This document shows positions 5,143-47,448 of a stretch of DNA of 64,000 bases, piece after piece (the first letter of the stretch is position 1; every line of letters starts with the position of its first letter). The notes under the pieces were generated by a model. It was not told the origin of the DNA. It ran no database searches and saw only the letters and a program-made list of their open reading frames with translations. Source of the DNA: Minisyncoccota bacterium (GTDB lineage Bacteria; Patescibacteriota; Minisyncoccia; Phycocordibacterales; JABAAK01); the NCBI GenBank assembly GCA_965222235.1, contig OZ244939.1, positions 557,942 through 621,941 of the forward strand, given 5' to 3'. Position numbers and translations under genes: made by a program.

Positions 5143-5185
5143 TGCTTTGTCAGGTACGAGGTGCCTGTGCTACACTGACACCATT

Positions 5186-5262
5186 GCTGCGGTAGCTCAG
5201 CCCGGTTAGAGCGCCTGCCTGTCACGCAGGAGGTCGCGGGTTCAACTCCCGTCCGCAGCGCC
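5186..5262 (+). tRNA. tRNA-Asp (anticodon GTC)
   Basis: A cloverleaf can be read by hand. The acceptor stem is gctgcgg/ccgcagc, the D-arm gctc-agcccggtta-gagc, the anticodon stem cctgc/gcagg with loop ctGTCac, and the T-arm gcggg-ttcaact-cccgt, with discriminator g. Confidence 0.85.
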
Positions 5263-5496
5263 CTTCTGTGTGGACGAAGTAATGGAACAGCCACATTCAG
5301 CACACTTCAAAAGATTTCTATATGGATGCTGTTTAGTTACCTGTTTCTTTTGTGGTTTACCCCGCTGTTCCATTATGAGATGGCATGCATCAAAAAGTTT
5401 CTTGGTAATGATTGGCTTATATGTGCCTTCGTGCGTTTCGTCATTCCATTGTACTACAGATATCGAATCAAATGCTTTTTGTAGTGATGTACCTCT
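5263..5496 (-). pseudogene. Internal fragment (zinc-ribbon region) of a large serine recombinase gene, fused directly to the 3' end of tRNA-Asp and truncated at the other side by an R-element
   Basis: The minus-strand translation ...HEGTYKPIITKKLFDACHLIMEQRGKPQKKQVTKQHPYRNLLKCAECGCSITSSTQKG matches residues ~255-300 of the recombinase at 24772 (ELYEGTHKPLITKKLFDKVQHVLTDKSRPKTRLKTPHAFRGLLLCAHCDCSITSSVQKG). The reading frame runs straight into the tRNA 3' end. Confidence 0.6.
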
Positions 5497-5758
5497 GGGC
5501 GCCCCTAATGAGATAGCACGTGAACTGGTAATTATTTTCGATCTGTTTTTTGATATTCAACCCTTATGCTCGCTCCTGTTTTTGTTTGCCTTTCAAATTC
5601 TCGCCAAAGGCGAGAAAGTGGGGGCAGGACTTAAAATGAAAACAAAAACAGGAGCTCGCAAATTTTGTGTCAGCACCTTTCTTTTGCCTTTCTCTGCGCG
5701 CAGAGCGCGCAAAGGGGTCGGCGGTAAAATGAAAAAGAAAAGTGGTCTGACACAAAAT
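5497..5758. repeat. R-element copy, left arm of the inverted-repeat pair around RM cassette 1; contains a nested internal palindrome
   Basis: Bases 5497-5596 and 5690-5758 are the reverse complement of 9093-9250 (ggcgcccctaatgagatagcacgtgaactgg ... gcctttctctgcgcgcagagcgcgcaaagggg...taaaatgaaaaag). The extra ~95 bp in the left arm contains a palindrome (gctcgctcctgtttttgtttgcc / aaaacaaaaacaggagctcgc). This copy is homologous to the R-family body elsewhere, for example 24233-24330. Confidence 0.7.
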
Positions 5759-5864
5759 GTTTTCAACAGGCATTCTCTGTAAATACCCTGATTCTACTCT
5801 TTATTTTTTTGGTTTTTGGTGTATTTACTTATTGTGCTATTTTTCCTTGTTATATTTATATTAT

Positions 5865-6944
5865 ATGCCTCTAATGTTCAGCAAGATCATTAAAGATGAT
5901 TGTGTGGCGGCACTGAGGAAGATTAAAGAAGAATCAGTTGATTTGATTTTTGCTGATCCACCATACAATCTACAACTTGGCGGTGAACTATTCAGACCGA
6001 ATAATACAAAAGTTGATGGTGTTGATGACGCATGGGATAAATTTACAGATCTTAAAGAGTATGATAAATTCACAGTGAACTGGTTGCAAGAATCTAAAAG
6101 AGTGTTGAAACCCAATGGAACCCTTTGGGTTATTGGCTCTTACCATAACATCTATAGAGTTGGTTCAATATTACAAGATCTAGATTTTTGGATACTCAAT
6201 GATGTCGTGTGGATTAAATCTAATCCTATGCCAAATTTTAAAGGCACTAGGTTCAATAATGCGCATGAAACACTGCTGTGGGTTTCTAAGGACAAAAACG
6301 CTAAGTTTACGTTTAACTACAAGACAATGAAAACATCTAATGATGATAAACAGATGCGCAGTGACTGGGTGATTCCTATATGCTCTGGGAAGGAAAGAAT
6401 TAAAACACGTGACGGAGAGAAAGCACATTCAACACAGAAGCCAGAGGAGTTGTTAAAGAGAGTAATTATTTCTTCATCAAAACAAGGTGATGTGGTTCTT
6501 GATCCATTTTTAGGGAGCGGAACCACAGGCGCTGTTGCGAAAATGCTTAACAGGAGTTTTATTGGCATAGAGAGAGAGGAGAAATACATTACAGTTGCAA
6601 AAGAACGAATTAAGAAGGTGAAACGGTACAATGAGGAGTACACGGTAAACTTTCAGGAGGTACCCAAGCCAAGGGTCCCTTTTGGTAATCTTGTAGAAAG
6701 TAATTATATTAAAGTTGGTGTGAAATTATACTCAAAGGATAAAAAACACTGGGCAAAGGTAATGGCTGACGGAACTTTGAAGAATGGGAAGTATTTTGGC
6801 TCTATTCATAAGGTGAGTGCAGAAATGCTTGAACGGGAAAGCAATAATGGTTGGATCTTTTGGAATGTTCAAAAAAATGGTAAATTGGTAAGTATAGACA
6901 GTCTGCGTGAGTTATATTTTCAGGAGACAACTCTAGCAGGATAA
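5865..6944 (+). CDS. DNA methyltransferase, beta-class (N6-adenine or N4-cytosine; DPPY before FxGxG), with a ~120-aa C-terminal extension
   Basis: It has ...SVDLIFADPPYNL (motif IV) early and DPFLGSGTTG (motif I) late. The ORF track gives 5757..6944, but the first 36 codons lie in the R-element. The likely start is MPLMFSKIIKDD at ~5865. The gene is AT-rich relative to its flanks. Confidence 0.85.
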   Translation: MPLMFSKIIKDDCVAALRKIKEESVDLIFADPPYNLQLGGELFRPNNTKVDGVDDAWDKFTDLKEYDKFTVNWLQESKRVLKPNGTLWVIGSYHNIYRVGSILQDLDFWILNDVVWIKSNPMPNFKGTRFNNAHETLLWVSKDKNAKFTFNYKTMKTSNDDKQMRSDWVIPICSGKERIKTRDGEKAHSTQKPEELLKRVIISSSKQGDVVLDPFLGSGTTGAVAKMLNRSFIGIEREEKYITVAKERIKKVKRYNEEYTVNFQEVPKPRVPFGNLVESNYIKVGVKLYSKDKKHWAKVMADGTLKNGKYFGSIHKVSAEMLERESNNGWIFWNVQKNGKLVSIDSLRELYFQETTLAG

Positions 6945-6952
6945 AAGGGTAT

Positions 6953-8140
6953 ATGGCACGAATACGAAACGCAAAAGAAAGTCATGAAAGTGGCTACGAG
7001 AGAATATTAGGAGATAAAGAAATTTCAAATCTCATTACAAAAATTCATGCAACGATGATTAGTGCAGGATCTGAACTTGAGCGGTTACTGTATGAGGAAG
7101 CAAAAAATAAAATAGAGGACGGAGAAGACCTTGACGCTTATTTTAAGGGGAACAAGGAGTTTCCAGAAAATGATGGCATATATCTTGTTAATAAGAGAAC
7201 AATTAAAAAATCAAAAGCACTGAAATCAGACAAGGAACCTGATTTTTTAGGTGTAGATTTTAAAAAAAGCACCCTCTATATCATTGAGGTGAAAGACGGA
7301 GAAAACTTTGATACTAAAAAGTCCAGTGTTGAGCATGAGAATTTAATTAGTTATAGGGACTTTATTGCTCATAAAATACCATTTTCGTCAGTCATTTACA
7401 TCTGCCTGTTTAATACTAAAGATAAAGACAGAGCATCCAAGGCAGGGCTGAAGAGTAAATTTTCAAAAGAGGAAATCATAACTGGAAAAGAGTTTTGTGA
7501 TCTGTTCAACATAGATTTTAACCGTATTCAGAAAAGGCGAGAAGAAGATGTAAAAGATAATCTAAGATTTATTATAGAGAACGTAAAGCAGTGGTTGAGA
7601 AAATATATAAAACCTGTAAGAGAAGAAAGTGATCTTAGAAAGATGTGGGATGATCTTATAAGCAAGAACGGTTACGCAATTGTAAATTATGGTGAATGGT
7701 TCGCCATTAAGAATGAATTTAAACAGTGGGGGTCTGAGAAGCAAAAAGTGCGCATAGTGGCGCAAGCAAATGCTGGAGAGGCATTGTATGCGCCGGAAGC
7801 AGATTTGTTAGGATACCTTTTCTTTGATGATATGAAAAAGGTTGATATACAAAATGACTATGCGATACGGGTTGACGGTGACTCTATGAACAAAAGAAAG
7901 ATAAATGGTAAGTATATAGAGAATAGTGATTATGTACTTGTTCAATCGGATACTCCGCCAGAAGAAGGAGATGTGGTAGTGTCACTTGTAAACGGTGGGG
8001 TGAATATAAAGGAGGTTTATAGAGAAAACGAAGACGTGATATTGCGATCTCAGTCAAAGAGTGCCGGGTACGAAGACATACGGGTGAGAGAAGACGATTA
8101 CACCTATCTGGGCAGGGCAATTGATGTTTTTAAGGTGTAG
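6953..8140 (+). CDS. Putative restriction endonuclease (PD-(D/E)xK fold) fused to a C-terminal LexA/UmuD-like S24 serine autopeptidase domain
   Basis: The start lies 9 nt after the MTase stop on the same strand. The N-terminal part has EPDFLGVDF-x8-IIEVKDGE, the PD...ExK spacing of type II REases. The C-terminal ~130 aa align to the LexA C-terminal domain: an Ala-Gly (QANAG|EAL) lies 36 residues before VDGDSM (Ser nucleophile), and the Lys in GVNIKEV lies 42 residues after the Ser. The same spacing in LexA is 34 and 37 residues. Confidence 0.6.
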   Translation: MARIRNAKESHESGYERILGDKEISNLITKIHATMISAGSELERLLYEEAKNKIEDGEDLDAYFKGNKEFPENDGIYLVNKRTIKKSKALKSDKEPDFLGVDFKKSTLYIIEVKDGENFDTKKSSVEHENLISYRDFIAHKIPFSSVIYICLFNTKDKDRASKAGLKSKFSKEEIITGKEFCDLFNIDFNRIQKRREEDVKDNLRFIIENVKQWLRKYIKPVREESDLRKMWDDLISKNGYAIVNYGEWFAIKNEFKQWGSEKQKVRIVAQANAGEALYAPEADLLGYLFFDDMKKVDIQNDYAIRVDGDSMNKRKINGKYIENSDYVLVQSDTPPEEGDVVVSLVNGGVNIKEVYRENEDVILRSQSKSAGYEDIRVREDDYTYLGRAIDVFKV

Positions 8141-8211
8141 AGACGGGTCAGTTAATATTTTTTAACATTGTGGGTGTGGAGATGGTTTGATACACTGATC
8201 AATATTAAAGA

Positions 8212-9024
8212 TTGCACATGACTTCTAACTCAAGCAAAATATTGCAAATTAATTTTTTGCACCAAGATATACAAAAGCATTGTTCAGGTTATCGCAAATC
8301 GGAGGAATATAGGGATTGTGCAAAGAAGGCGTTTGATTTGGTACGTGATAGGTATCGGGAAAAATTTGGCAGTGAAATTGTACCCAAGGAATTTTTAAAA
8401 GTATATTACATAAAAGGCACGCGAGGTTCTAGCGGTAGTGAAGAAGATAAAAATTTTCAGAAAGGGTGTGAGTATGTATTGCGCTCAGTTAATAATTTTA
8501 GGCATGAAGTAGAGCACACAGATTCCACCACACCTATGACAAAAAAAGATGCTATGCACCATTTATGTTTATGTAGTATGGCTCTTAATTTTTTAGATCA
8601 AATGGAGCACTATCCAAATAATACACATCCGTTTACACGAAATGACTATAAGAAAGAAAAGATGAGCGGATCAATTAAATTTAACTATAGCAACAACAAT
8701 GGTGAATATCGTATCGGTAAGGATTTACATGCTTTTACTGTAAAGGTTAGTTCTTGTAGTGAAAATTCTTTATACGTATATCACGATCCAGAGTTGATAA
8801 AGGGAGTGGGATTGATATTTAAGAGATGTAAAGATTTGAAGACCCTAAACGAGAAAGCATTAAAAACAATTGATATGAGTTCAAGGTGTAGGAGGATGAC
8901 AGTGGAAAATACATGTATTCTTCTAAACTTAAATAATATGTATGTCGCACTAAATTTAGAAAGTGCAGAACGTGAATGTGGTCACATTGCTATTATAGAG
9001 TATCAAATATTGCCTAAAGGGTAG
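8212..9024 (+). CDS. Hypothetical protein, third gene of RM cassette 1; contains an Rx4HxH (HEPN-like) motif
   Basis: This is a 270-aa AT-rich ORF. The motif NNFRHEVEHTD fits the HEPN Rx4-6H signature, and no other fold was recognised. It is co-directional with, and immediately downstream of, the nuclease-S24 gene. Confidence 0.45.
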   Translation: MHMTSNSSKILQINFLHQDIQKHCSGYRKSEEYRDCAKKAFDLVRDRYREKFGSEIVPKEFLKVYYIKGTRGSSGSEEDKNFQKGCEYVLRSVNNFRHEVEHTDSTTPMTKKDAMHHLCLCSMALNFLDQMEHYPNNTHPFTRNDYKKEKMSGSIKFNYSNNNGEYRIGKDLHAFTVKVSSCSENSLYVYHDPELIKGVGLIFKRCKDLKTLNEKALKTIDMSSRCRRMTVENTCILLNLNNMYVALNLESAERECGHIAIIEYQILPKG

Positions 9025-9092
9025 CGTAAGGAAATTCGCAAGCGTGATTGTATAAAGATTAATCACGCTTGCGAATTGCAGTTTAGGCAGAT

Positions 9093-9250
9093 TTTGTTCA
9101 GACTCTTCTTTTTCATTTTACCGCCGCCCCCTTTGCGCGCTCTGCGCGCAGAGAAAGGCAAACAAAAACAGGAGCAAGCATAAGGGTTGAATATCAAAAA
9201 ACAGATCGAAAATAATTAACCAGTTCACGTGCTATCTCATTAGGGGTGCC
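9093..9250. repeat. R-element copy, right arm of the inverted-repeat pair around RM cassette 1
   Basis: This is the reverse complement of the 5497-5758 arm. It contains taccgccgccccctttgcgcgctctgcgcgcagagaaaggcaaacaaaaacagg, which is homologous to cagtaccgcccccttcacgcgctccgcgcggaaaaaaggcagaagaaaatgg in the R copy at 24255-24310. Confidence 0.7.
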
Positions 9251-9367
9251 TGAGGTGCCTGAGAAGATGTGCCGGGTTTGTGCAGGATGCTTTTGTTCGG
9301 CAGGGGTGTATCGTAGAGGAGGAATGTACCCTGCCCGATGATCTTGTATGGTATACTGACTATATAT

Positions 9368-13439: not shown

Positions 13440-13457
13440 TACTTAGGCTCTTTTTAT

Positions 13458-16272: not shown

Positions 16273-16494
16273 GGTTTTGGTGCTCTTGTTTGTGACATAC
16301 TTACCTATATGATATACCTCTGCCGTCATAAGCTGGGTGGAAAGTAGTTTGAGATGCAGGGTACTGCACTTTATCCGCTGAATGTTCTAAAAAGAAACTA
16401 TCTGTGTCTGTGTAGTTTTTTAAATTACTAATCGGCTATTATACCGAAGATAGAAACAATACCGTCATTACATTCGGCGCACCTCACACCATTG

Positions 16495-16730
16495 TGTTTG
16501 AACTCTGGAAGCACTTTGACGACACCTCGCCCGCTCAAAAACAGGAAGGGCTTTCTGCGAAACACCTTCCTGTTTTTTCACTCTTTGGCTCGGCGGTGTC
16601 TGTTCCGTTTTGTTTTTTCCATTCCGTCTCGCTACTCCGCTACCACTCCGCAAAAATCAAAAATCGGAAATACTGTTTCAGTTTTGTTTCTCCATTCCGT
16701 CCTGTATACTCCGCTAACGCTCCATACACA
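16495..16730. repeat. R-element family fragment (degenerate copy)
   Basis: Bases 16497-16545 (gtttgaactctggaagcactttgacgacacctcgcccgctc) are similar to 20296-20336. Bases 16560-16650 (ccttcctgttttttcactctttggctcggcggtgtctgttccg...) are similar to 45215-45300. Confidence 0.5.
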
Positions 16731-20198: not shown

Positions 20199-20276
20199 AG
20201 ATAGTCATGCACCTCTGAAAATCCGCCCGTGAAAACTCTTTCGGGAGATTCACGGCGGATACACCTCTTTTACCTT

Positions 20277-20588
20277 CAAGCCTTGTTCACAACCTTCTGC
20301 TTGAACTGAAAAAACATTTTGAAAACACCTCGTCCGCTCCGCCCACTCAGTAACTTTAATCCCAATCATACGCTCCAATTGCTCAGTAAACCCTTTCACC
20401 AAAGAATTCGGAGCGTCGCTCGCAAGCATGCGCAAGCTCGCATCGCGCAAATTTTTCCACTTCGCTCATCCGACTGGCGGCTTTGCCACCATCGGTAACG
20501 CCAATCACCATCTCCATTTTCTTCTGCCTTTTTTCCGCGCGGAGCGCGTGAAGGGGGCGGTACTGAATTGAAGAAGAAAATGGGGTGG
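20277..20588. repeat. R-element, left arm of a perfect 312-bp inverted repeat flanking RM cassette 2; preceded by the 19-bp core ctcttttaccttcaagcct (20265-20283)
   Basis: It is 100% identical, as the reverse complement, to 24233-24544. Every 60-nt line was checked by eye. Confidence 0.85.
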
Positions 20589-20628
20589 CGAAAGGCATGA
20601 AACAACGGAGACACCACCCTATTTTTGT

Positions 20629-21357
20629 TTAATCCCTCATTCCAATCTCTTTTTCTAATATTTTGATAAGTTCTATAATCTGTGGAATATCCAATTCGTC
20701 TATCTCAGATTTTCTCTTTATTAAATGATACCAGGAGTGTACCCGATTATTGGTTTCTGTTTTTAGTTTATCTGCAAGATTATAAAGGCGTTCCACTGCT
20801 TTGATCTTTGTACCAAAGTCACTCTTCTTATTATGTAAATTTTTGAGTATAACGCCGAAATCCCTAAGCCTTCTTTGATCTGTGTCAAAATAGAGATTTT
20901 TTTCTTTTGGATATTTTTTACAAAGTATATCTATGATTAGGTTTTCTATGATTTTTCGTGACAGGATGGAAACGGAAGTGTAGCAGCCATATGTGTACGC
21001 TTTGTTGATTTCATCAATATGTCCTTTTACAAAATGTTTGTCTGTCTCATACTCAAAGAGCACCAGTATCTCCTTCTTTTTTCTGCCACCTTCTCTTTTT
21101 ATTGCAGGTTTTGAGGTTTGGGGTATGTGTGATGGCGTTGATATAATACGTTTCTCCTCAGCAGATAATTTTTTTTGAAAGGTGGTACAAGGAACCCCTT
21201 CTTGTTTGGATATCATTACGAGAGCAACATCAGAGGAAACACTCTGTGTTCTTGATTTCCTGGAGATCCTCTCTTTTACACTTTTTCCCTTTGATCCTGT
21301 TTTTTCAGCAATTTTTTTGATCAACTTTTCTTTTGCTGATTTTTTAGTATCGTTCAT
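20629..21357 (-). CDS. Hypothetical protein of RM cassette 2; Lys-rich N-terminus, C-terminal helical domain with Rx5H (possible HEPN-like) motif
   Basis: A 242-aa AT-rich ORF with ...TETNNRVHSWYHLIKRK... No confident fold assignment. Confidence 0.4.
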   Translation of the reverse strand: MNDTKKSAKEKLIKKIAEKTGSKGKSVKERISRKSRTQSVSSDVALVMISKQEGVPCTTFQKKLSAEEKRIISTPSHIPQTSKPAIKREGGRKKKEILVLFEYETDKHFVKGHIDEINKAYTYGCYTSVSILSRKIIENLIIDILCKKYPKEKNLYFDTDQRRLRDFGVILKNLHNKKSDFGTKIKAVERLYNLADKLKTETNNRVHSWYHLIKRKSEIDELDIPQIIELIKILEKEIGMRD

Positions 21358-21361
21358 ATAT

Positions 21362-21550
21362 TTATGTCGATCTCCCGCCCCTCTTATTCTTTTCTCTGTG
21401 TAAGTAAAAACTTCTTGAAATATGTGACTGGTCTACACCAAGTATTTTTGCAATATCTTGCTGGGGTGCACCTTCCTTTGATATGATGAATACCAAGAGT
21501 CGCTTGATATCTTCCAGATCTTTCTCCATTTTACTTTCCTTTGTTTTCAT
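21362..21550 (-). CDS. Small HTH DNA-binding protein (1 of 3 tandem paralogs; controller-like)
   Basis: A 62-aa ORF with the helix-turn-helix QQDIAKILGVDQSHISR. Confidence 0.45.
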   Translation of the reverse strand: MKTKESKMEKDLEDIKRLLVFIISKEGAPQQDIAKILGVDQSHISRSFYLHREKNKRGGRST

Positions 21551-21731
21551 ATATCCATTTCTTTTTTTTATCCAGGTCTTTCAGGTATGAGTTTAATTTG
21601 CCTGTTGAGATACCTATTCTTTTTGCTATGTCGGGCTGACCTAACCCGGTTTGGTGATAAAGAAGGGCAGTAATCTGTCTCAACAGTTCTATAACTTCTT
21701 CTTCGTTGCTTTTCTTTTTTGTTCTTTGCAT
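21531..21731 (-). CDS. Small HTH DNA-binding protein (2 of 3 tandem paralogs)
   Basis: A 66-aa ORF with the helix-turn-helix QPDIAKRIGISTGKLNSYLKDL. Confidence 0.45.
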   Translation of the reverse strand: MQRTKKKSNEEEVIELLRQITALLYHQTGLGQPDIAKRIGISTGKLNSYLKDLDKKKKWIYENKGK

Positions 21732-21735
21732 AAGA

Positions 21736-21948
21736 CTATTTTTTGTTTTTTGATTTAATTACAGCAACATAGTTTTTGCTCGTGGACAGTATCTCTGCGA
21801 TTTCTTCATTGGTCAGATCGAACTCGTTGAGAAATTTAATGTTTTCTGTGGCATCAGAGTCACCCTCTCTTTTGATCATCAGGGCAATGAGTACTGACAT
21901 TTTTTTTGACAATGATCTGAGCAGATCTGTGCTTGTTTGTTGCTCCAT
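21736..21948 (-). CDS. Small HTH DNA-binding protein (3 of 3 tandem paralogs)
   Basis: A 70-aa ORF with the helix-turn-helix NEEIAEILSTSKNYVAVIKS. Confidence 0.45.
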   Translation of the reverse strand: MEQQTSTDLLRSLSKKMSVLIALMIKREGDSDATENIKFLNEFDLTNEEIAEILSTSKNYVAVIKSKNKK

Positions 21949-22065
21949 ATAATTATACTATGTTTCTTAATATTTTTATCATATACCTATATTACTTACT
22001 GTATTCAGTATACTTGAATTTCGTATAATATAGATATACCTTATATTGTATACGACACTTGATGT

Positions 22066-22824
22066 ATGTCAATATGTTTGTTATACTTTACTTATGCAAC
22101 CCAAGGCGTACACTTTGGGTATATGGATAAAATAAACGATACACAGTCTTTTGACTTATTTCTACAGAGTGTCGATCTGAATAAGTATAGGGAGAAGTAC
22201 AAGCCAATCAAATTGGTGGAGATGGATTTGCCGAGAGATATTCAGGTATTGGACCTTATGTACGAGATTTATTGGGACAAGCGAGAGTATGTTGACTTCG
22301 ATGACTTCTACAAGAGTTATGAAAAACGGTACAAGGGTGAGATAGAGTCGTTCAGAGAAAAAATAACAATGTGCCCTAATTGTTTCTATCGGGGATTGCC
22401 TGCGAGAATATACAGAACTTGGGCAAGTATTATTACACAAATACATGCCGGCTATGTTGCTGAGCGGGTATTTGGTGCTGACATGGTGCGTATGTCCACC
22501 GAGCTTGACAGAAAGAGTGCAGATATACAGGTTTCTTATAAAGGACGCACACTGAATTATCAGGTTAAGAAAGTTACAAAGAGTCGGGAGGTGCGCGTAC
22601 AAAAAACTACAAACAAGCAGTTGGAGGGTGAGGCAATAGACATCAAATATTTTGTTCCTACACAGGAAGTTTTTGAAAAACCAAAGAAACTAAATGGTGA
22701 GTACAGAAAGCCATACCGTGATTTTATGGAAAACAAAAACTTAAAGAGGTTGGATAACGGCTTTGTGGTATTTACCCCTCATGTTTTTCGTGAGAAAAAA
22801 GAAGAGATTGATGTTTCTCGTTGA
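22066..22824 (+). CDS. Hypothetical protein, candidate restriction endonuclease of RM cassette 2 (convergent with and overlapping the MTase 3' end)
   Basis: A 252-aa AT-rich ORF. The likely start is MDKIND at ~22126. It has a CPNC pair and acidic/Lys-rich motifs (STELDRKSADIQVSYKGR), but no clean PD-(D/E)xK assignment. Its position and convergent overlap with the MTase are typical of type II R genes. Confidence 0.4.
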   Translation: MSICLLYFTYATQGVHFGYMDKINDTQSFDLFLQSVDLNKYREKYKPIKLVEMDLPRDIQVLDLMYEIYWDKREYVDFDDFYKSYEKRYKGEIESFREKITMCPNCFYRGLPARIYRTWASIITQIHAGYVAERVFGADMVRMSTELDRKSADIQVSYKGRTLNYQVKKVTKSREVRVQKTTNKQLEGEAIDIKYFVPTQEVFEKPKKLNGEYRKPYRDFMENKNLKRLDNGFVVFTPHVFREKKEEIDVSR

Positions 22825-24175
22825 GTTCTTGGTTTTTTAAGAGGCCATCAGCTAGCCGGATGTATTCTTTATTAATTTCCATACCGATAAAATCATGCCC
22901 GAGCTGTTTTGCTGTAAAACACTCTGATCCGGACCCGGCGAACGGGATAAGGACTAACCCCTTTTGTTCAAGGCAGGAATTGATAAGTTTTTCTGTGAGT
23001 AAGGATGGTTTTTGTGTTGGGTGTTTGAGGGTGTTATGCTTTCTGTGTTCTTCCAAATGTTTTGCCACATATGTTTCACCACAAGTTTTACAAAGAAAAT
23101 GCCGTTCTGATCTGCCGGCACCCCCGGCAAGCGCGGGTACTTTGATAACATCTCTTGGTAGGGCACCTTTTTTGTGTGCTTTGTATATTGTTGTGCTTTC
23201 TCCCTTGCTAAATCTGCAGGATTTTGAATTTCTTGTTTTGCCAGCAGAGTTTTTGAGGAATGTTTCTGAGTACGGTTCTCTAACTGCATCTCTGAAGAAT
23301 GTTGGCTTTTTTTCTTTCCATACACATAATATGCTTTCATGACTTCGTTGCCAGAAATTGAGAGAAGCAACATTTTTATTAGTGTAATGCCAGATCAACC
23401 ATCGTTTGTTTACCTGTATGTTTGGTGTGATATGTGCCAGTATTTCACTGAATCCGTAGATAAACATGGTCCCTTCATTTTTAAGGCATCGTAATCCCTC
23501 ATTAACCCATGTGTTGCACCATCCGACATACTCATCAATCTCTCTTTTATCTTTATTATTTCCAAAATCTTTTCCTATGTTGTATGGCGGATCTGCGATG
23601 ATAACATCAACACTTACATTTGGCATCTTTCGCATTTCTATTAATGCATCTCCGTGAATTATGGTATTTTCTTTTGGTATTTCTGTATTCAGTATTCTTT
23701 TTGAAACAAGATTAACACTCTCTTGTTCTTGTGTTTCAATTTTTCCCGTTACTACACCAAGAATGTCAATCTTATTTTTAGGAAATGATAGCAATTCTCC
23801 ATTGTCAGATATTAGCGTAATATTCCTTTTTGTTACATTTTTAATTCTTTTTATGGTGTCTCCTTTTTGTGTTCTTGCAATAATAACATCATCTTGTTTT
23901 GCTTGCGTTGCGTCTTCTACAAGAATAGTTGTACCATTTTTATAGGTATGTCGCATGCTATCGCCACTCACTGTTAGGGAATAATATTTTTTATTTGGTT
24001 TTAATATGTTTTCGGGGATAGTAATTGTTGAGAAGGTGCCACATATCGCTGTGCCGAGTGAGGTTTCGGCATAAACCTTACCGAGGAAAGGTATTTTTAC
24101 ATATTTCATATATATATAGTGTAACTGGAAAATTAGGTCATGTAGAAAAATCCACCATCGTATATGGAAATCCAC
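22772..24175 (-). CDS. Fusion protein: N-terminal LexA/UmuD-like S24 serine autopeptidase domain + C-terminal beta-class DNA methyltransferase
   Basis: Residues ~60-150 read YSLTVSGDSMRHTYKNGTTILVEDATQAKQDDVIIARTQKGDTIKRIKNVTKRNITLISDNGELLSF. This aligns to LexA VRGDSM...VVVARIDDEVTVKRLKKQGNKVELLPEN, with Ser73, Lys109 and a candidate Cys-Gly cleavage site 27 residues upstream. Residues ~170-467 read IIHGDALIEM...VIIADPPYNIG ... IPFAGSGSECF, a DPPY-then-FxGxG MTase. It is a single uninterrupted ORF. The likely start is MKYVK at ~24109. Confidence 0.7.
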   Translation of the reverse strand: MDFHIRWWIFLHDLIFQLHYIYMKYVKIPFLGKVYAETSLGTAICGTFSTITIPENILKPNKKYYSLTVSGDSMRHTYKNGTTILVEDATQAKQDDVIIARTQKGDTIKRIKNVTKRNITLISDNGELLSFPKNKIDILGVVTGKIETQEQESVNLVSKRILNTEIPKENTIIHGDALIEMRKMPNVSVDVIIADPPYNIGKDFGNNKDKREIDEYVGWCNTWVNEGLRCLKNEGTMFIYGFSEILAHITPNIQVNKRWLIWHYTNKNVASLNFWQRSHESILCVWKEKKPTFFRDAVREPYSETFLKNSAGKTRNSKSCRFSKGESTTIYKAHKKGALPRDVIKVPALAGGAGRSERHFLCKTCGETYVAKHLEEHRKHNTLKHPTQKPSLLTEKLINSCLEQKGLVLIPFAGSGSECFTAKQLGHDFIGMEINKEYIRLADGLLKNQELNEKHQSLLFSHEKHEG

Positions 24176-24232
24176 TCATGCAAGAGTTCTTGCGAAATTG
24201 CATGAGCGGATTGCTAATAATTCACACCAATC

Positions 24233-24544
24233 CCACCCCATTTTCTTCTTCAATTCAGTACCGCCCCCTTCACGCGCTCCGCGCGGAAAAAAGGCAGAAG
24301 AAAATGGAGATGGTGATTGGCGTTACCGATGGTGGCAAAGCCGCCAGTCGGATGAGCGAAGTGGAAAAATTTGCGCGATGCGAGCTTGCGCATGCTTGCG
24401 AGCGACGCTCCGAATTCTTTGGTGAAAGGGTTTACTGAGCAATTGGAGCGTATGATTGGGATTAAAGTTACTGAGTGGGCGGAGCGGACGAGGTGTTTTC
24501 AAAATGTTTTTTCAGTTCAAGCAGAAGGTTGTGAACAAGGCTTG
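24233..24544. repeat. R-element, right arm of the perfect 312-bp inverted repeat; continues as a diverged extension to ~24650 that duplicates the 3' flank of tRNA-Arg(TCT)
   Basis: It is the reverse complement of 20277-20588. Bases 24540-24650 are the reverse complement of 26190-26300. Confidence 0.85.
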
Positions 24545-24771
24545 ATGGGAAGATGGAGTCCGCTTTCACGGACCTATTGATATGGCGCGCCCTATGGGCG
24601 CGCAAAAAGGGGGAAGAATAAAGGATGTGCCACGCGTTGCGTGGCACACTGATTTTTCAAAAAGATTTTTGTCCGAACGCAGAAATATTTTGTGTTGTAT
24701 ACTAACAGTGCAACCCAAGATAGTATAAGGATTAAAATCGCCTCATCAGACCGGAGTTCTTATGCTTTGGG

Positions 24772-26479
<1,708 letters not shown>

Positions 26480-26484
<5 letters not shown>

Positions 26485-27440
26485 TGGTTCAATACATTTG
26501 CACATGAGTGTACCACATCTATGGGTTTCTTAAGGTCAATGCCGAAATGCGGTCTCTCATGGTTGTAATGATGGAGGTATTGGGCGTATTGTTCTCTGAG
26601 ATCGTCATATTCTTTGAAAGGAGCCTTGTAGTAGATGAACTCCTCCTCATCAGTCCTGAACGATCGTTCAATGACGGCATTCTCGTTAGGACTTGATTTG
26701 TGAATATAGTGGTGTTTTGTACAGAGAGCAGTTACATGGGTATGGAATCTTTTTTGAAATTCAAGACCGTTATCCGTTTGGATGAATACTGTTCTGAAGG
26801 GTAGACGGTTCACTATTTCCGTCATAGCTGAAATGGCATTATTCTGATTCAGATCATTGTATATGACGGCATCCTTGTATCGGGAGTAAATGTCTATGAT
26901 GGCATACTCGAAACAGGTCCAGGGCAATCCTGTCAATTCAGGGGTGAGGTACTTCACATCCATCTGGAGGTAGCCGACGGTTTCAGCGTTCTTTGCGTGC
27001 ATATGTACTGTATTCTGACACAAGGGACGACGATGTCGCTTCTTCTGTCGTATGTAGCCACGGGCTATCAGGAACCGTTTCACCGTACTTACTGATACCG
27101 CTATACCGGTTTCCTCCCTGAGTTTCTCGGCACACCATCCCCGTTTCTGCCTCATTGCCGCAATGACTACTCTTTCCTCCCCGGAGAGTGCCGGTTCCCT
27201 CAGTCTCTTCGGTCTCGTGCTCTTCCGCTGCAGTCCCCGCATGACATACCGCGGTTCCCCGTAGGGATACGGTGACCGTGCCCGTCTCAGCCACCGGGAT
27301 ACCGTGGTTCTGTGGATACCGAGCAGTTCAGCAGTATGCTGTATATCTCTTGTTTCTTTGTATATTTGAATGATTTTCTTGGGATGTTGTCTCATACATC
27401 TGCAGTATCGCTGCTATGTGCAAATGTATTGAACCATTAA
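26480..27440 (-). mobile_element. IS481-family insertion sequence copy 2 (inverted relative to copy 1), 7-bp target duplication gatatac
   Basis: It has the same 25-bp terminal IRs as copy 1. The sequence gatatac at 26473-26479 is repeated at 27441-27447. The element sits ~90 bp from tRNA-Arg. Confidence 0.8.
26481..27395 (-). CDS. IS481-family transposase (identical to 11651..12565)
   Basis: The 304 aa are 100% identical to the copy-1 protein. Confidence 0.85.
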
Positions 27441-27643
27441 GATATACTTGATTTTTATGTGTCTGTACGATAAAATTTCTCTATATGTTCTCTATATGAA
27501 AAAAGTATTTGGTTTTCCTTGGGGTTTAGTATTCTTTTTCTTTTTATCCCTCCTTGTTTTAGTATGGGCATTTATATCTCTTTATTCTAATAACTTGGAA
27601 TACGCTTTCTATTTTTTTTAAAGAGCTTTATATTATTATTCTT

Positions 27644-45047: not shown

Positions 45048-45079
45048 CTAGTGCTGTGCCGAATGCACCGAAGCCCTGA

Positions 45080-45400
45080 TCCCACCGAACGGGCTAATCT
45101 TTTCAAAGCTCCACTCCGTTGCGCACCGATCCTCGTGGCACTCCGCTCCCGCGCCAACCGCGGAGAAGGGCGCGAAATATGGAACGGCAGGGAAGGTATT
45201 GCATACGCAAACCCTCCCTGTTTTTTCACTTCTGCTCGGTTCGGCTCCGTTCAGTTCACTTTTCCCACTCCTCCTCTTTTCGCTGCGCTGTCGCTCCGCG
45301 GAAAGTGTCAGAGCCGGAAATGCCTGTGCGAATCTGAAGGCGATACTTGACCCGCACATGCTACACAACACATCCGTTGCGACAGGGAACATTGTGTTTA
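45080..45400. repeat. R-element family copy (degenerate core + body) immediately downstream of the giant adhesin gene
   Basis: Bases 45105-45160 are the reverse complement of 49760-49810. Bases 45215-45300 are similar to 16560-16650. Confidence 0.6.
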
Positions 45401-45475
45401 TGATGTCCACTACACTTTTCAAAAATATCAATTATTCATATATCGTATACTTAATTTCTTAACTGTAATTGTGAT

Positions 45476-46045
45476 TCATTTTATAAAAACCTTACATTTT
45501 TTTGCCTCGTTCATTAATTTTGTATAAGTAATTGATTCAATGAAATAATGTTTTTTATGATGGTCGTATGTTTTATTATTGATATGAAATTGCCCCTCTC
45601 CAATATTACCCCTATGCTGTTTATCTGAATAATTTATCTTTTCATCTCTTTGTATCTGCTTTTTTTCTATTTCAAATATCTCAATCACATCATTAAAAAA
45701 TAATAAGTATATCATCTTATCAAAGAGTTTTACTTTTATTTGTTGAATGTTACAATCAAATTCAAATTTACCCACATCTTTTTGTTTTATCAGTCTGTTT
45801 CTATTACTATTATTTATTATGATTTCATAAAAATTCTCAATATTCATATCTAACTTCTGTTTTTTAAAAACTTTTGATGCTTTTACCTCAACTTTATTAT
45901 TATTTATATCCACCAAATCAAACTCCAATTTTTTACTTTCTATGCATTTTTTCAGTATCATAACGATAATCTCAGCAGCAGTTCCGAACTGCCTTGTGTG
46001 TATATCAATAATGCCATCCCGAAATTTCTCACTATCCATACCCAA
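45476..46045 (-). CDS. Putative type II restriction endonuclease of RM cassette 3
   Basis: It is co-directional with, and overlaps by 14 nt, the upstream MTase. FDLVDINNNKVEVKASK fits the D...ExK motif of PD-(D/E)xK nucleases. It is very AT-rich. Confidence 0.5.
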   Translation of the reverse strand: MGMDSEKFRDGIIDIHTRQFGTAAEIIVMILKKCIESKKLEFDLVDINNNKVEVKASKVFKKQKLDMNIENFYEIIINNSNRNRLIKQKDVGKFEFDCNIQQIKVKLFDKMIYLLFFNDVIEIFEIEKKQIQRDEKINYSDKQHRGNIGEGQFHINNKTYDHHKKHYFIESITYTKLMNEAKKCKVFIK

Positions 46046-46823
46046 TTTTTCTTATTCGTTTTTCCATTATGTCAAAATACTCTTTTTTGTTCTCAAAACA
46101 GATATATTTTCTATTGCATTGTATTGATGAAACAGCGGTTGTTCCGCTGCCGGCAAAAGGATCTAACACAGCATCACCTTCATTACTGAATACCTGCACT
46201 ATTCTGTCCATCAGCATTAATGGTTTTTGAGTCGGGTGTTTCACTCTCTCTTTTGACCACGGAACAATCGGAGAAACATCGGTCCATACATTAGAGAGTG
46301 CTCTGTATCGGTTACCATTTTTTCTGCCAATTGTCCCGCCGGTTTTTTTGAGAATCGTTGAAGAAATTTTATTGTATGTGTGTGTTTTCTCATCCTTCAC
46401 ATACCACAAAATGTCCTCTCTCGTGGAGACAAGGTTGGTTTTTGCTCCTCGTCCCTTTATCCTGTCGTAAATTATCCAATTTTTTAATGTAAATAGCGCG
46501 CTGATTTCAGTATGGGTCAGCATCACATTAGACCATCCTTGAAACACTATGAGATTACCCGTTGGTTTTAGTATTCTATTGAATTCTTTTGTTAACAGAT
46601 TCCAATTCAAAAAACCTTTCGCATCCCATTCATTTCCTTCAAAATTTATTTCATACGGAGGATCGGTCGCTATCAAGTCAACTGAATTTTCAGGAAGTTT
46701 CGGGAGTAGCTCAATACAATCACCCAAAACAATCTGATTTTCAAGAGATTTTACCGAATCAACTCTATCTGTAAAAACAGATTTTCGGTTTTCTACACCT
46801 GTTAGTAACATGCCTTGCTCCAT
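46032..46823 (-). CDS. DNA methyltransferase, beta-class (DPPY ... FAGSGTT)
   Basis: VDLIATDPPYEINF early, DPFAGSGTTAV late. Confidence 0.85.
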   Translation of the reverse strand: MEQGMLLTGVENRKSVFTDRVDSVKSLENQIVLGDCIELLPKLPENSVDLIATDPPYEINFEGNEWDAKGFLNWNLLTKEFNRILKPTGNLIVFQGWSNVMLTHTEISALFTLKNWIIYDRIKGRGAKTNLVSTREDILWYVKDEKTHTYNKISSTILKKTGGTIGRKNGNRYRALSNVWTDVSPIVPWSKERVKHPTQKPLMLMDRIVQVFSNEGDAVLDPFAGSGTTAVSSIQCNRKYICFENKKEYFDIMEKRIRKIGYG

Positions 46824-46852: not shown

Positions 46853-47112
46853 TAGAAGGCGATAATATCACACCTTGAAGTTTTAATAGAAAAGCAGAGT
46901 GCCAAGTCTCCCGGAAGAAAAGTTTTTGAGGCGATGCTTGATCGCATCGCCGAGGGAGAGGCAGAAGGAATTCTTGCGTGGCATCCGGACAGACTCGCCC
47001 GCAACATGACGGACGGGGCGAAACTGGTTGAATTGATTGAATCAGTCGGCGCGTCTCTTGTCTTTCCCACTTACCATTTTGACAATACGCCTCACGGTAT
47101 CTTCTGCCTCTC
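46853..47112 (+). pseudogene. Internal fragment of a serine recombinase gene (residues ~55-140), truncated upstream by RM cassette 3 and downstream by the R-element core
   Basis: ...SHLEVLIEKQSAKSPGRKVFEAMLDRIAEGEAEGILAWHPDRLARNMTDGAKLVELIE...FPTYHFDNTPHG aligns with LEVLEERQSAKEPGRPVFNRVLSRIYDGEATGILAWHPDRLARNSIDGGQIIHLID...FPTFWFEPTPQG of the 24772 protein. The sequence then runs into ctttttaccttcaagcct. Confidence 0.6.
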
Positions 47113-47384: not shown

Positions 47385-47448
47385 CATAGTACCAAGCGGG
47401 CGTATGTGTTTTTTCTTTTTGTTGCACTTCAGGTGCGAATTCAATTCT
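47385..47448 (-). mobile_element. Solo ~62-bp fragment of the IS30-family left end
   Basis: ccatagtaccaagcgggcgtatgtgttttttctttttgttgcacttcaggtgcgaattcaattc is the reverse complement of 11469-11533. Confidence 0.65.

Follow-up and report, generated by a model that had tools for sequence, protein, structure and literature searches.

Dispersed repeats beside tRNA genes in a Minisyncoccota genome are recombination-site arms of small serine recombinase islands

The window (the whole 64,000-nucleotide stretch of contig OZ244939.1 that was analysed) holds large serine recombinase (LSR) islands at three tRNA genes, and the islands have a GC content of 35-45% vs 55% in the backbone (Table 1). The island at tRNA-Arg(TCT), unit 1, runs in the order junction a (20276), restriction-modification (RM) cargo, inverted junction b (24538), LSR, junction c (26318) and tRNA. 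Its LSR is identical to database protein P0001 and has the full large-serine-recombinase domain set, in keeping with the earlier note on this DNA, which had named a serine recombinase as driver.

Table 1. Features of the LSR islands and their surroundings (window coordinates)
Feature	Position	Strand	Evidence or content
tRNA-Asp(GTC), target of decayed unit 0	5185..5263	+	ARAGORN, Rfam
LSR pseudogene fragment (aa ~233-297) abutting tRNA-Asp 3' end	5260..5457	-	tblastn, 49-55% identity
Unit 0 b-type arm	5491..5758	+	inverted repeat with 9091-9256
Cargo 0	5757..9024	+	three genes; Pfam, PADLOC
Cargo 0 Type II MTase with RAMA domain	5757-6944	+	
Cargo 0 Type II REase fused to S24 peptidase domain	6953-8140	+	
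Cargo 0 Hypoth_Ymh protein	8212-9024	+	
Unit 0 a-type arm, outer, attL-like	9091..9256	-	
Orphan P'-arm-like copy, then 'ext' module	16470..16691	+	TTTGAAC motif, LSR-tail-like sequence, terminator-like hairpin
Outer arm, junction a	20210..20283	+	GTGAAA-loop hairpin, then 19-mer 20265-20283 including core TCAAGCCT 20276-20283
IR2 left arm (copy A), junction a, attL-like	20270..20601	+	core, P' half-site, tail, body
Cargo 1	20629..24175	mixed	three genes; Pfam, PADLOC
Cargo 1 unknown protein	20629-21357	-	
Cargo 1 TaqI-like Type II REase	22066-22824	+	Pfam, PADLOC
Cargo 1 S24 peptidase fused to N6/N4 MTase	22772-24175	-	Pfam, PADLOC
IR2 right arm (copy B), P' arm of junction b	24221..24551	-	98% to copy A, inverted
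IR1 left arm X'	24538..24652	-	inverted copy of LSR 3' end, aa 467-502
Large serine recombinase LSR1	24814..26484	+	556-aa ORF; Pfam Resolvase, Recombinase, Zn_ribbon_recom
IR1 right arm X and core, junction c, attR-like	26202..26318	+	abuts tRNA
tRNA-Arg(TCT), target of unit 1	26316..26389	-	ARAGORN, Rfam
963-bp IS, DDE (rve_3) transposase	26479..27441	-	identical inverted copy at 11605-12567
Outer arm of decayed unit 3	45048..45403	+	P'-like sequence, body fragment 45108-45157, 'ext' terminator module
Cargo 3, unknown 189-aa protein and Type II N6/N4 MTase	45476..46823	-	Pfam, PADLOC
LSR pseudogene fragment (aa 49-130)	46874..47116	+	tblastn, 60% identity to LSR1
Copy C	47113..47385	+	19-mer variant with core 47113-47131, then P' arm and body of unit 4
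Cargo 4	47492..49810	mixed	Pfam, PADLOC
Cargo 4 D12-class Type II MTase	47492-48721	+	
Cargo 4 Type II REase	48701-49810	-	
Copy D	49699..49913	-	inverted unit 4 body, then ~30 nt remnant arm, exact 19-mer 49895-49913
tRNA-Arg(GCG), target of tandem units 3 and 4	49911..49982	-	ARAGORN, Rfam

What are the repeats? In a self-comparison of the window, each of the nine intervals listed in the earlier note significantly matched at least one other. Inverted similarities join 20270-20601 with 24221-24551 (332 bp, 98%), 24538-24652 with 26202-26318 (97-100%), 5491-5642 and 5678-5758 with 9256-9110 and 9167-9091 (86-90%), and 47249-47385 with 49837-49699 (76%). A direct match links 47116-47252 to 20268-20401 (68%); others link 45108-45157 to 49808-49759 (92%), 45191-45304 to 16544-16656 (68%) and 16484-16536 to 20287-20339 (75%). 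Inverted pairs thus surround three cassettes, cargos 0, 1 and 4, instead of the two first proposed. Nor do the repeats form a single family: they are a composite of at least three modules, the X arm (final ~100 bp of the LSR gene, reaching to the tRNA), the P'/body arm and 'ext', which holds a terminator-like hairpin. The body, once thought a possible non-coding RNA, consists of the recombinase gene's 3' coding tail and the region downstream.

The junctions form a consistent series. Junctions b and c share their sequence as far as the core, and a and b share theirs from the core on. The series reads X-O-tRNA, X-O-body and outer arm-O-body (O, the core), in agreement with the proposal of an att-like cassette array at tRNA 3' ends. 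The start of the repeat body coincides with the LSR's own 3' coding end, and attP is therefore located within the LSR gene. In its native form the gene continues into P', which consists of ~20 codons (motif ..L.EIRTFF.EN..) and a terminator-like hairpin, with a T-loop-like xGAAC within. In copy A the P' half-site is GCTTGAAC at 20299-20306, and the native C-terminal tail SSLVHNLLLELKKHFENTSSAPPTQ, ending in a stop, is at 20276-20353, followed by ~250 bp of downstream body. X' and copy B together make up an intact inverted attP (X-O-P'), and from this arrangement of X and P' the junctions a, b and c behave as attL, intact inverted attP and attR. While the conserved native tail is encoded across junction b, the last ~55 codons of the resident LSR are a read-through of the core and the reverse-complemented tRNA, as the tail analysis shows; such tRNA-derived tails (..DSNxxP..) are found in integrated copies and in database proteins. 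With attP within the reading frame, integration would therefore swap the enzyme's C-terminal tail for tRNA read-through.

The two kinds of site also differ in register. The distance from xGAAC to the point of divergence is 18 nt for P' and 13 nt for the tRNA, the T-loop TTCGAAC of tRNA-Arg(TCT) being 5 bp nearer the crossover than the matching P' motif, and a shift of +4 or +5 bp is present in 31 of 38 loci. This is presumably the known difference between attP and attB half-sites, which LSR-DNA structures reportedly display (Rutherford et al. 2013). In two respects the sites depart from those typical of characterised LSRs: no motif is conserved across loci in the left (B-type) arm of attB, and the att sites have no clear dyad symmetry. 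No directionality factor (RDF) was identified for the LSR units.

The 19-mer CTCTTTTACCTTCAAGCCT, which the earlier note took as the core, is exact at 20265 and 49895, as claimed; the copy at 47113 carries two mismatches, and there is a 14/19 variant both at 26299-26317 and, as its reverse complement, at 24538-24556. The number expected by chance is 0.01, and three matches were reached in 0 of 100 shuffles. It is indeed the immediate 3' flank of both tRNA-Arg genes and shares the last 3 nt of the tRNA, but the sequence common to all junctions is only TCAAGCCT (AGCCT in relatives). The 19-mer most likely comes from a second LSR lineage, now decayed, whose recombinase-side (X) arm would have ended in these 19 nt; the grounds are a 6-codon in-frame similarity (LLPSSL vs IFPSSL at the end of LSR1) and a similar upstream hairpin. 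A search for an intact LSR ending in the 19-mer found none. The outer arm at junction a may be what remains of the P arm of an older LSR unit that has decayed.

The remaining copies in the window are best read as decayed units. For the tRNA-Asp unit this is confirmed by locus L110, an orthologous intact LSR unit, also at tRNA-Asp, that shares the flanking gene and the RM cargo: the LSR fragment has 81% nucleotide identity to its intact LSR, and 5471-8199, the stretch of the MTase and REase-S24 genes, has 77% identity to its cargo. In the b-type arm of unit 0, the core GGGCGC (5497-5502) is followed by a P' half-site that includes GTGAAC (5520-5525) and then by the body. At tRNA-Arg(GCG), where L001 and L002 have intact LSR units, the outer arm of unit 3 carries the P'-like sequence CCGAAC...TTTTCAAAG, and the LSR fragment is joined by deletion to the 19-mer variant, with CCTCT shared at the junction. 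Copy C encodes a native-like tail, SSLANRIALKLKKDFENTNLHAPPTP, with its stop; the body of copy D (49699-49883) lacks the P' half-site, and the LSR module of unit 4 is deleted.

Could these similarities be passive scars, with no recombination system of their own, left where homologous recombination or IS-mediated rearrangement copied the intergenic DNA that follows paralogous tRNA genes? The two tRNA-Arg genes with their flanks are alike (49900-50000 vs 26305-26405, 73%), and the identical inverted IS copies bracket 12568-26478 and so unit 1. That pair lies outside the repeat family. Rearrangement by it blurs the history left of 20265. The idea is nevertheless contradicted by the three-junction architecture in dozens of unrelated genomes and at many tRNA species, by arms that are alike within a genome and only ~68-75% identical between related genomes, and by the conservation of a protein-coding tail and half-site motif; it is the least credible of the explanations weighed here.

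The unit architecture recurs across many ultra-small (CPR/Patescibacteria-type) bacterial genomes. In a comparison set of 82 related LSR loci, a convergent tRNA starts 0-100 bp after the LSR in ~50, and IR1 flanks the LSR in 65 (median 103 bp, 97.5% identity). IR2 abuts X' and surrounds cargo of 1.2-8.5 kb in 24 of the 41 loci that could be tested, i.e. those with >3 kb upstream (median 132 bp, 99% identity). RM or defence genes predominate among 73 cargo ORFs from 25 units; with Type II RM cargos in the window and the same architecture at tRNA genes in dozens of genomes, the description of a tRNA-linked defence island holds. LSR ORFs are intact in most loci, and the family is almost absent from viral contigs. 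Backbones that are 84-95% identical hold unrelated cargo between their repeat arms, which is the cassette-level polymorphism named earlier as a test, and near-identical backbones occur at different tRNA genes in different genomes. At locus L028 a single tRNA-Ser carries two LSR units, joined as X1-O-P'2, and L107 is similar.

These loci also bear on whether the repeats are terminal inverted repeats of non-autonomous, MITE-like or composite transposon-like RM cassettes, with the serine recombinase a mere neighbour. Three RM cassettes of the window do lie within inverted repeats of 150-330 bp, and IS elements with DDE transposases are present. Yet there are no target-site duplications, and the bases flanking the arms are inverted too, as part of the core; the arms start with the LSR's 3' coding tail and always abut an inverted LSR 3' end; each cassette is at a tRNA with an LSR gene or remnant, and none of the 82 loci has a cassette copy away from that context. 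Conservative recombination between inverted sites, moreover, inverts and does not excise. Transposon-like cassettes are thus very improbable, and the att-type junction series upholds the initial view that this is neither an IS nor a MITE.

The dispersed repeats are arms of recombination sites of LSR-driven islands and not one element, and the whole explanation, that the islands are small integrative units placed by an LSR at the 3' end of tRNA genes, is considered quite probable. A complete unit consists of an outer arm, core and P'-body; cargo; an inverted body-P', core and X; the LSR; and finally X, core and tRNA. A new unit would insert beside the tRNA into the attR of the previous one, pushing older units outward, hence the tandem arrays; older LSR genes would decay by deletion and leave orphan arms. 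The window holds one intact unit at tRNA-Arg(TCT), one decayed at tRNA-Asp, two tandem decayed at tRNA-Arg(GCG) and, at 16.5 kb, an orphan arm.

Given the inverted orientation of the spare attP, the LSR module (X' to X) and the cargo (between P' arms) might both be invertible, by the LSR itself or by homologous recombination. A flip of the LSR module would exchange a tRNA-derived tail, convergent with the tRNA, for the native tail and terminator, co-directional with it; if real, this flip would let the unit switch both the form and the expression of its recombinase by itself. Both module orientations are seen: in L106, and in L004 vs L005, which are 91% identical, both at tRNA-Asn and oppositely oriented. 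Native tails occur in ~12% of LSR cluster representatives, and the tRNA-convergent state dominates, roughly 9:1, which counts against two equivalent inverted attP in the mobile form, as these would predict about equal orientations.

Are the inverted pairs, then, mainly phase-variation devices like Hin/Gin segments or RM shufflons? In this view the islands are not currently mobile, and a domesticated recombinase switches expression by flipping itself and whole RM cassettes. Long, nearly identical inverted repeats around both cargo and LSR, the two LSR orientations in close relatives, a cargo 1 homolog in L001 oriented oppositely relative to its LSR, and the prevalence of intact LSR ORFs agree with this. 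Near-identical backbones at different tRNAs and genomes with unrelated cargo, and the tandem arrays, do not; they argue that units move and exchange cargo. An attL/attP/attR series with an attP/attB register shift is likewise unlike two equivalent inversion sites, and since the RM genes are in mixed orientations, no single repeat-boundary promoter could switch a whole cassette. Phase variation as the main role is therefore a rather doubtful, though serious, alternative to integrative units, whose mobility and inversion are themselves suggested by between-species comparisons.

No description of the architecture was found, and its inverted spare attP and invertible LSR module appear to be new. 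The closest known systems are the Dehalococcoides ssrA genomic islands, with the LSR DsiB, and the related staphylococcal SCC/Ccr elements. The ssrA islands have a ~500-540-aa LSR beside a small stable-RNA gene, insert at the gene 3' end, accrete in tandem downstream, some without their own recombinase, and carry accessory cargo; 20-bp direct repeats of the ssrA end mark their boundaries, their six-gene integration module includes a second small recombinase, and inverted repeats are not reported for them (PMC3146451). The present units share the LSR beside a small stable-RNA gene, 3'-end insertion, tandem accretion and accessory cargo, but differ in having a single LSR gene, attP within its ORF, a flanking inverted spare attP, many different tRNA genes as targets and a size of only 3-10 kb.

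Large serine integrases of phages and ICEs (phiC31, Bxb1, A118/LI, TP901-1) have the same Resolvase-Recombinase-zinc-ribbon build, short att sites and a small common core, and presumably the same half-site register, in which the attP motif is ~5 bp more distant from the centre than its attB counterpart. They differ in a single attP outside or beside int, quasi-palindromic sites, an RDF for excision and rare use of tRNA genes, whereas the present LSR reads the tRNA T-loop, has no evident RDF, is nearly missing from viral contigs and seems to tolerate any left arm at the target, because insertion into another unit's attR is seen. In Hin, Gin, Cin and Pin a serine recombinase gene also lies inside (Hin) or beside an inverted-site segment and both orientations occur, but these are small invertases with a C-terminal HTH, 26-bp sites, a Fis enhancer and no integration; here the recombinase is of integrase type, and the inverted sites are attP and attR types with a common recombinase-side arm.

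An attP inside an element gene whose product is altered by integration is also known from SSV-type archaeal integrases, where SSV1 int is split upon integration, and from mycobacteriophage integration-dependent immunity, where integration reportedly takes a C-terminal tag off the repressor (Broussard et al. 2013). These are tyrosine recombinase systems with no inverted spare attP, and in the present units the exchange is confined to the final ~20 codons of a serine recombinase. The integron likeness drawn earlier stands as a functional analogy, i.e. a resident recombinase, a fixed insertion point and an exchangeable cassette array with the newest nearest that point; the tyrosine IntI, folded single-stranded attC and promoterless cassettes expressed from Pc belong to integrons and have no counterpart in these units.

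Comparison of the window with itself by BLAST gave almost no matches under default scoring, and the repeats were recovered with gentler, gapped scoring and a repeat finder. By these means each of the nine repeat intervals listed in the earlier note proved significantly similar to at least one other, and the strongest pairs are all inverted (see table). Every cassette in the window carries Type II restriction-modification (RM) genes, as detected by Pfam and PADLOC, and the cassettes coincide with low-GC stretches (35-45% vs 55% GC). The repeats very probably represent the attachment (att) arms of RM islands that are driven by a large serine recombinase (LSR), target tRNA genes, accreted in tandem and partly decayed. 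The earlier proposal of a tRNA-linked serine-recombinase cassette array is supported by the logic of the junctions, by recurrence at tRNA genes in dozens of other genomes and by the RM cargo; the island system is, moreover, more general and more structured than was visible in that first reading.

Repeats, tRNA genes, recombinase sequences and cargo (window positions unless a locus, L, of another genome is named)
Feature	Position	Similarity or remark	Evidence
Inverted pair, copies A/B (strongest)	20270-20601 vs 24221-24551	332 bp, 98%	self-comparison
Inverted pair, X'/X	24538-24652 vs 26202-26318	97-100%	self-comparison
Inverted pair, arms of unit 0 (decayed, at tRNA-Asp)	5491-5758 vs 9256-9091	86-90%	self-comparison
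Inverted pair, copies C/D (arms of decayed unit 4)	47249-47385 vs 49837-49699	76%	self-comparison
Direct match, weaker	47116-47252 vs 20268-20401	68%	self-comparison
Weaker match	45108-45157 vs copy D	92%	self-comparison
Weaker matches	16484-16691 and 45157-45403	similar to one another and to copy A	self-comparison
tRNA-Arg(TCT)	26316-26389	minus strand	ARAGORN, Rfam
tRNA-Arg(GCG)	49911-49982	minus strand	ARAGORN, Rfam
LSR ORF	24814-26484	Resolvase, Recombinase, Zn_ribbon_recom	Pfam
X' arm, inverted LSR residues 467-502	24537-24644		tblastn
LSR fragment, residues 49-130	46874-47116	ends at the copy C 19-mer	tblastn
LSR fragment, residues 233-297	5260-5457	abuts the tRNA-Asp 3' end	tblastn
MTase-RAMA + REase-S24	5757-8140		Pfam/PADLOC
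TaqI-like REase + S24-MTase	22066-24175		Pfam/PADLOC
N6/N4 MTase	46032-46823		Pfam/PADLOC
D12 MTase + REase	47492-49810		Pfam/PADLOC
S24-associated proteins	6953-8140, 22772-24175; L001 5033-6373; L002 6790-8676; L107 4638-5318; L110 7180-8367		

The intact unit at tRNA-Arg(TCT), unit 1, has three junctions: a (20276), b (24538) and c (26318). On the plus strand, c reads X-O-tRNA (the tRNA as its reverse complement), where X is the arm at the LSR 3' end and the core O is TCAAGCCT; b, reverse-complemented, reads X-O-body, and a reads outer arm-O-body. Since the left arm of b is that of c and its right arm that of a, b relates as an attP to an attR (c) and an attL (a). This pairwise sharing of arms around a short core is found in the window and in 25 other loci. 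Unlike a normal prophage, the unit thus appears to keep a spare attP intact in the integrated state, inverted and immediately 5' of the LSR gene. An attP so placed would account for the two abutting inverted-repeat pairs, IR1 (X' and X) around the LSR and IR2 (copies A and B) around the cargo. Nested independent elements with terminal inverted repeats (an 'L-circle' and a 'cargo circle') were rejected, as a P' arm, the native continuation of the LSR gene, lies beyond X' in every locus, and conservative recombination between inverted sites cannot excise a segment. That the repeats do not represent an IS or MITE, as first noted, agrees with the absence of a direct target-site duplication; the flanking bases are inverted (TCAAGCCT / AGGCTTGA).

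How is the 19-mer, originally taken for the core, to be understood? Its recurrence is real: there are exact copies at 20265 and 49895 and one at 47113 that differs by two mismatches, with 0.01 copies expected by chance, and a 14/19 variant is present at 26299 and, reverse-complemented, at 24538. The 19-mer forms the immediate 3' flank of tRNA-Arg(GCG) and its variant that of tRNA-Arg(TCT). A common att core is ruled out, as a, b and c share only 5-8 nt, i.e. TCAAGCCT in the window and AGCCT in L001 and L002, two related loci. The 19-mer is in frame with the end of the LSR1 X arm and homologous to it (LLPSSL vs IFPSSL, 14/19 nt), and the hairpin just before it in copy A has the GTGAAA loop of the X hairpin. 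TTTTACnnnCAAGCCT-like sequences are found at outer junctions of L001 (twice) and L002. Alternatively, tRNA-Arg(GCG) might have the 19-mer as its native 3' trailer, which would make it the B arm of an attB, but that fits worse with the in-frame LSR homology and with the X-like hairpin ahead of it in copy A. The 19-mer is therefore best read as the putative P-arm end of a second LSR lineage, all genes of which appear decayed in the window. The 3' end of that lineage's LSR would be ...CTCTTTTACCTTCAAGCCT, and copies A and C would be tandem junctions like the one in locus L028. A metagenome scan for the 19-mer gave 22 chance matches, none with an LSR.

A Pfam search of 24772-26484 identified PF00239 (1.5e-20), PF07508 (2.7e-10) and PF13408 (7.5e-9); the database protein cluster to which the LSR belongs carries no cluster name, and look-ups of identical proteins for the window GyrB and LSR gave no result. 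Judged from translations, attP itself would lie inside the recombinase gene. Site b is open in the LSR frame in nearly every locus, for ~20 codons beyond the core, with a conserved native tail (W-L-x-x-L-x-x-I-R-T-F-F-x-E-N-P-D-A-D-F-stop), after which comes a GC-rich hairpin. The window tail reads SSLVHNLLLELKKHFENTSSAPPTQ and a stop (20276-20353 in copy A; the same in B), and in copy C it is SSLANRIALKLKKDFENTNLHAPPTP and a stop. In the integrated arrangement the LSR ORF runs through the reverse-complemented tRNA, giving a tail ..GRIRTCDL.. in the window and ..WLRGQDSNLQPS.. elsewhere. Among 102 related database proteins (<700 aa), at least 52 have recognisable tRNA-derived tails and about 12% the native one; most of the remainder stop a few codons past the core and are read as probable tRNA-side ends as well. 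As site b encodes the LSR tail, the repeat body is made up of the LSR gene's 3' end and the region downstream of it. A non-coding RNA, once suggested for the body, is ruled out: its conserved start is LSR coding tail, and Rfam at gathering thresholds finds only four tRNAs in the window. A short antisense reading frame within the body (M..VIG..) was likewise not accepted as a conserved gene, as it has stops in copies A/B and C and is open in D. LSR C-termini of the form '..DSN(L/R/P)(Q/R)P..' or alike occur in database proteins P0016, P0017, P0020, P0046 and others and in L008, L009 and L033; as these residues are translated reverse-complemented tRNA T-arms, public LSR gene calls routinely overlap tRNA genes.

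In all loci the DNA beyond X' looks like the 3' portion of a tRNA gene (consensus ..TGGCTG / ...AAAATCCGAAC..TTT). Measured from the divergence of b and c, an xGAAC motif in attP is 18 nt away, vs 13 nt for the tRNA T-loop TTCGAAC. The shift is +4 or +5 bp in 31 of 38 loci, the others being regex artefacts; the corresponding window motifs in P' and the T-loop are GCTTGAAC and ATTCGAAC. In LSR-DNA structures, the zinc-ribbon-domain motif is reportedly displaced by ~5 bp between attP and attB half-sites, and the register shift in the att sites would match this displacement in phage serine integrases. The window attP can be written GTGAAAGC-N16-TCAAGCCT-N15-GCTTGAAC, and in the family-wide logo the left arm shows no mirror image of the GAAC motif. 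Where the tRNA genes of a genome include CCA, the core starts with its reverse complement, TGG, which places the crossover at the very 3' end of the tRNA. The window tRNA genes do not encode CCA, and hence the core there is TCAAGCCT; in most other loci (among L003-L082) the core starts with TGG, which also provides the conserved Trp codon of the LSR tail.

LSR homologs number in the thousands, and those named are almost all from Parcubacteria, Paceibacteria, Microgenomates and other Patescibacteria. Two close relatives at 76% identity, L001 and L002, share this layout, at tRNA-Arg(GCG) and with different RM cargo; the L001 contig of 831 kb, read as circular (its name ends '_c'), encodes GroES/GroEL-family proteins. 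A scan of one genome per species added 80 loci at 43-55% identity, making 82 with these two. In about 50 of the 82, a tRNA gene convergent with the LSR starts 0-100 bp after it, and many tRNA species are represented. IR1 is present in 65 of the 82 (median 103 bp, 97.5% identity), and IR2 abuts X' in 24 of the 41 loci with >3 kb upstream (median 132 bp, 99% identity), with cargo of 1.2-8.5 kb. Many contigs begin or stop within an arm, as expected where repeats exceed assembly k-mers. Scans of viral contigs for the LSR family gave only two close matches and were uninformative. In L086, a 4598-bp contig from a viral collection, the inverted copy of the LSR 3' end is found 2.8 kb upstream of the LSR start and not directly upstream, so that in this variant layout an invertible segment would hold other genes too. 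The metagenome-assembled genome CAYNHQ01 has at least five LSR copies on separate contigs (L065, L074, L076, L078, L082), four of them each at another tRNA gene (Ser, Arg, Ala, Pro); directly downstream of L076 there is no tRNA, and the nearest one, tRNA-Leu, follows about 0.7 kb further on. A small genome is thus able to host many LSR copies.

Units also accrete. In L028, from a complete 562-kb genome, two LSR units lie in tandem at one tRNA-Ser with a middle junction X1-O-P'2, which indicates that the inner unit inserted into the attR of the outer one; L107 shows a similar arrangement. Insertion into an occupied attR implies that the target requires only the core and a tRNA arm, and this fits the absence of a conserved motif in the outer arms. 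At tRNA-Arg(GCG) in the window, copy C consists of an LSR remnant with the 19-mer, then O and P', and copy D of an inverted body joined to the tRNA by ~30 nt of arm with the 19-mer at its end; a deletion has removed the LSR module there. The tRNA-Asp locus keeps the canonical order of LSR fragment, b-type arm, RM cargo and a-type arm. Its intact ortholog is on a related 634-kb contig (L110), with a prepilin-peptidase neighbour and tRNA-Asp common to both, 120-bp X/X' arms, a 270-bp IR2 at 97%, and an MTase-RAMA + REase-S24 cargo 77% identical to that of the window. By this comparison the window unit has lost its LSR by two deletions.

Among 73 cargo ORFs from 25 units, RM and other defence domains dominate, e.g. 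N6_Mtase, N6_N4_Mtase, Eco57I, ResIII, Mrr, EcoRI methylase, HNH and S24/LexA fusions. Backbones of LSR plus arms are 84-95% identical within pairs and trios of loci (e.g. L033/L051, L043/L056 and L064/L066/L047), and no cargo similarity is detectable between their IR2 arms. Polymorphism of cassettes exactly at repeat boundaries, which the earlier note had named as a check, is in this way confirmed. Members of the trio L064/L066/L047 sit at tRNA-Glu and tRNA-Trp, which points to movement between tRNA targets.

Of interest is the S24 (LexA-like) peptidase domain, which recurs with RM components in the islands. Fusions with MTases are seen in both the window and L001, and one with a Type II REase in the window; the L002 fusion also bears a LexA DNA-binding domain, and in L107 and L110 the domain is in a protein encoded beside an MTase. 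The L110 protein is homologous to window 6953-8140 and so probably joins REase and S24 in one fusion. The association suggests that restriction or modification may be controlled by autocleavage or DNA damage.

Other features of the window are also repetitive. Two IS copies, 11605-12567 and 26479-27441 (963 bp, 100% identical, inverted), encode a 304-aa DDE/rve_3 transposase and have 26-31-bp terminal inverted repeats. They bracket 12568-26478, i.e. the intact LSR unit and tRNA-Arg(TCT), one copy being 90 bp upstream of the tRNA, and homologous recombination between them could invert the 14-kb block. A second IS-like element with a weak rve_3 match has two inverted partial copies (12814-13487 and 19049-19723, 96-98%), and a 63-122-bp sequence associated with its end is found at 11468-11589, 19705-19826 and 47383-47457, the last inserted at the inner edge of copy C. 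Three tandem DUF805 membrane protein paralogs of ~62% nucleotide identity (16808-18927) lie just downstream of an orphan P'-arm copy (16470-16691); a unit since destroyed may have carried them as cargo. A 2012-aa ORF (39009-45047), which probably encodes a giant surface protein, runs right up to the unit 3 outer arm; it contains tandem repeats of ~320 bp (39170-40690), repeats of ~1.0-1.2 kb (40771-43230) and a microsatellite-like run of the 12-bp GGTAGTAGCGGT (44346-44510). Five copies of a 27-bp tandem repeat are found within an ORF at 32029-32163.

Can the units invert? In L106 the LSR module is reversed: tRNA-Gln(+), X', a native-tailed LSR running into IR2, RM cargo and an inverted IR2 arm. 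L005 (flipped) and L004 (canonical) are 91% identical, both at tRNA-Asn, and homologous TaqI/S24-MTase cargo has opposite orientations relative to the LSR in the window and L001. These cases imply that both segments, LSR module and cargo, flipped during evolution. The two LSR orientations are seen between genomes only, not within one population, and the tRNA-convergent state is in strong excess, roughly 9:1. Recombination of b with c, through their common X arm, would regenerate identical sites and invert the LSR gene. The flip would toggle the tail between a tRNA-derived one, convergent with the tRNA, and the native tail with terminator, co-directional and downstream of the tRNA promoter. The architecture would also be reproduced by a 2-micron-like free element bearing two equivalent attP sites, but each orientation should then make up ~50%, contrary to observation, and this reading is retained as a sub-hypothesis only. 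Near-perfect identity extends well beyond the ~25-bp half-sites, which suggests that homologous recombination or gene conversion may also act on the arms. It is a tentative reading, less likely than not, that in this LSR lineage, widespread in ultra-small CPR-type genomes, the inverted spare attP makes a one-way attP x attB reaction reversible, with the flip in tail and transcription controlling capture, exchange and mobility of RM cassettes without a directionality factor.

CPR/Patescibacteria genomes are tiny, and few mobile elements and defence systems had been expected in them. The findings indicate that much of their RM repertoire is carried by one compact platform, a single recombinase gene with two nested inverted repeats, situated at tRNA genes, which can be annotated automatically. 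It accounts for the many assemblies that break beside LSR genes and for the unusual '...DSNxxP' C-termini seen in many database recombinases, which result from reading through tRNA genes. It also offers a natural case of an attP within an integrase ORF, tRNA T-loop recognition, insertion into an occupied site and possibly a self-inverting integrase. An integrase for which a tRNA 3' end on one flank of the target suffices could be of use in organisms without engineered landing sites.

How does the platform compare with known systems? A full-text search of the literature other than subscription journals found no description of this architecture, and a 2025 survey of Patescibacteria islands mentions neither recombinase nor tRNA. 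The likeness to integrons seen at first holds for the cassette array but not for the integron hallmarks: the sole recombinase is of the serine type and not an IntI tyrosine recombinase with attI, and in place of a direct attC per cassette there are inverted arms of 100-370 bp holding LSR coding tail. Hin resembles the platform in having its recombinase inside an invertible segment, and both orientations occur here, between genomes. Hin/Gin, however, are invertases of ~190 aa with a C-terminal HTH and two equivalent 26-bp inverted sites, whereas the LSRs have 500-556 aa and a zinc-ribbon domain, and their inverted sites differ in the outer arms (P' vs tRNA). Enzyme class and register shift are shared with phage serine integrases. 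An attP inside a gene is known also from SSV1 and from integration-dependent immunity. An attP within the LSR ORF together with an inverted spare attP, recognition of the T-loop and RM cargo is found in none of the systems compared. Nearest among those described are SCC/Ccr elements and the ssrA islands of Dehalococcoides, the latter with the LSR DsiB, tandem islands at the tmRNA gene and 20-bp direct repeats (PMC3146451). The second small recombinase of these systems (DsiA/CcrA type) is absent here, and the direct repeat in the window is only the 5-8-nt core; longer tRNA-end direct repeats are found in L047, L051 and L052, and tandem units with an LSR adjoining a tRNA are present.
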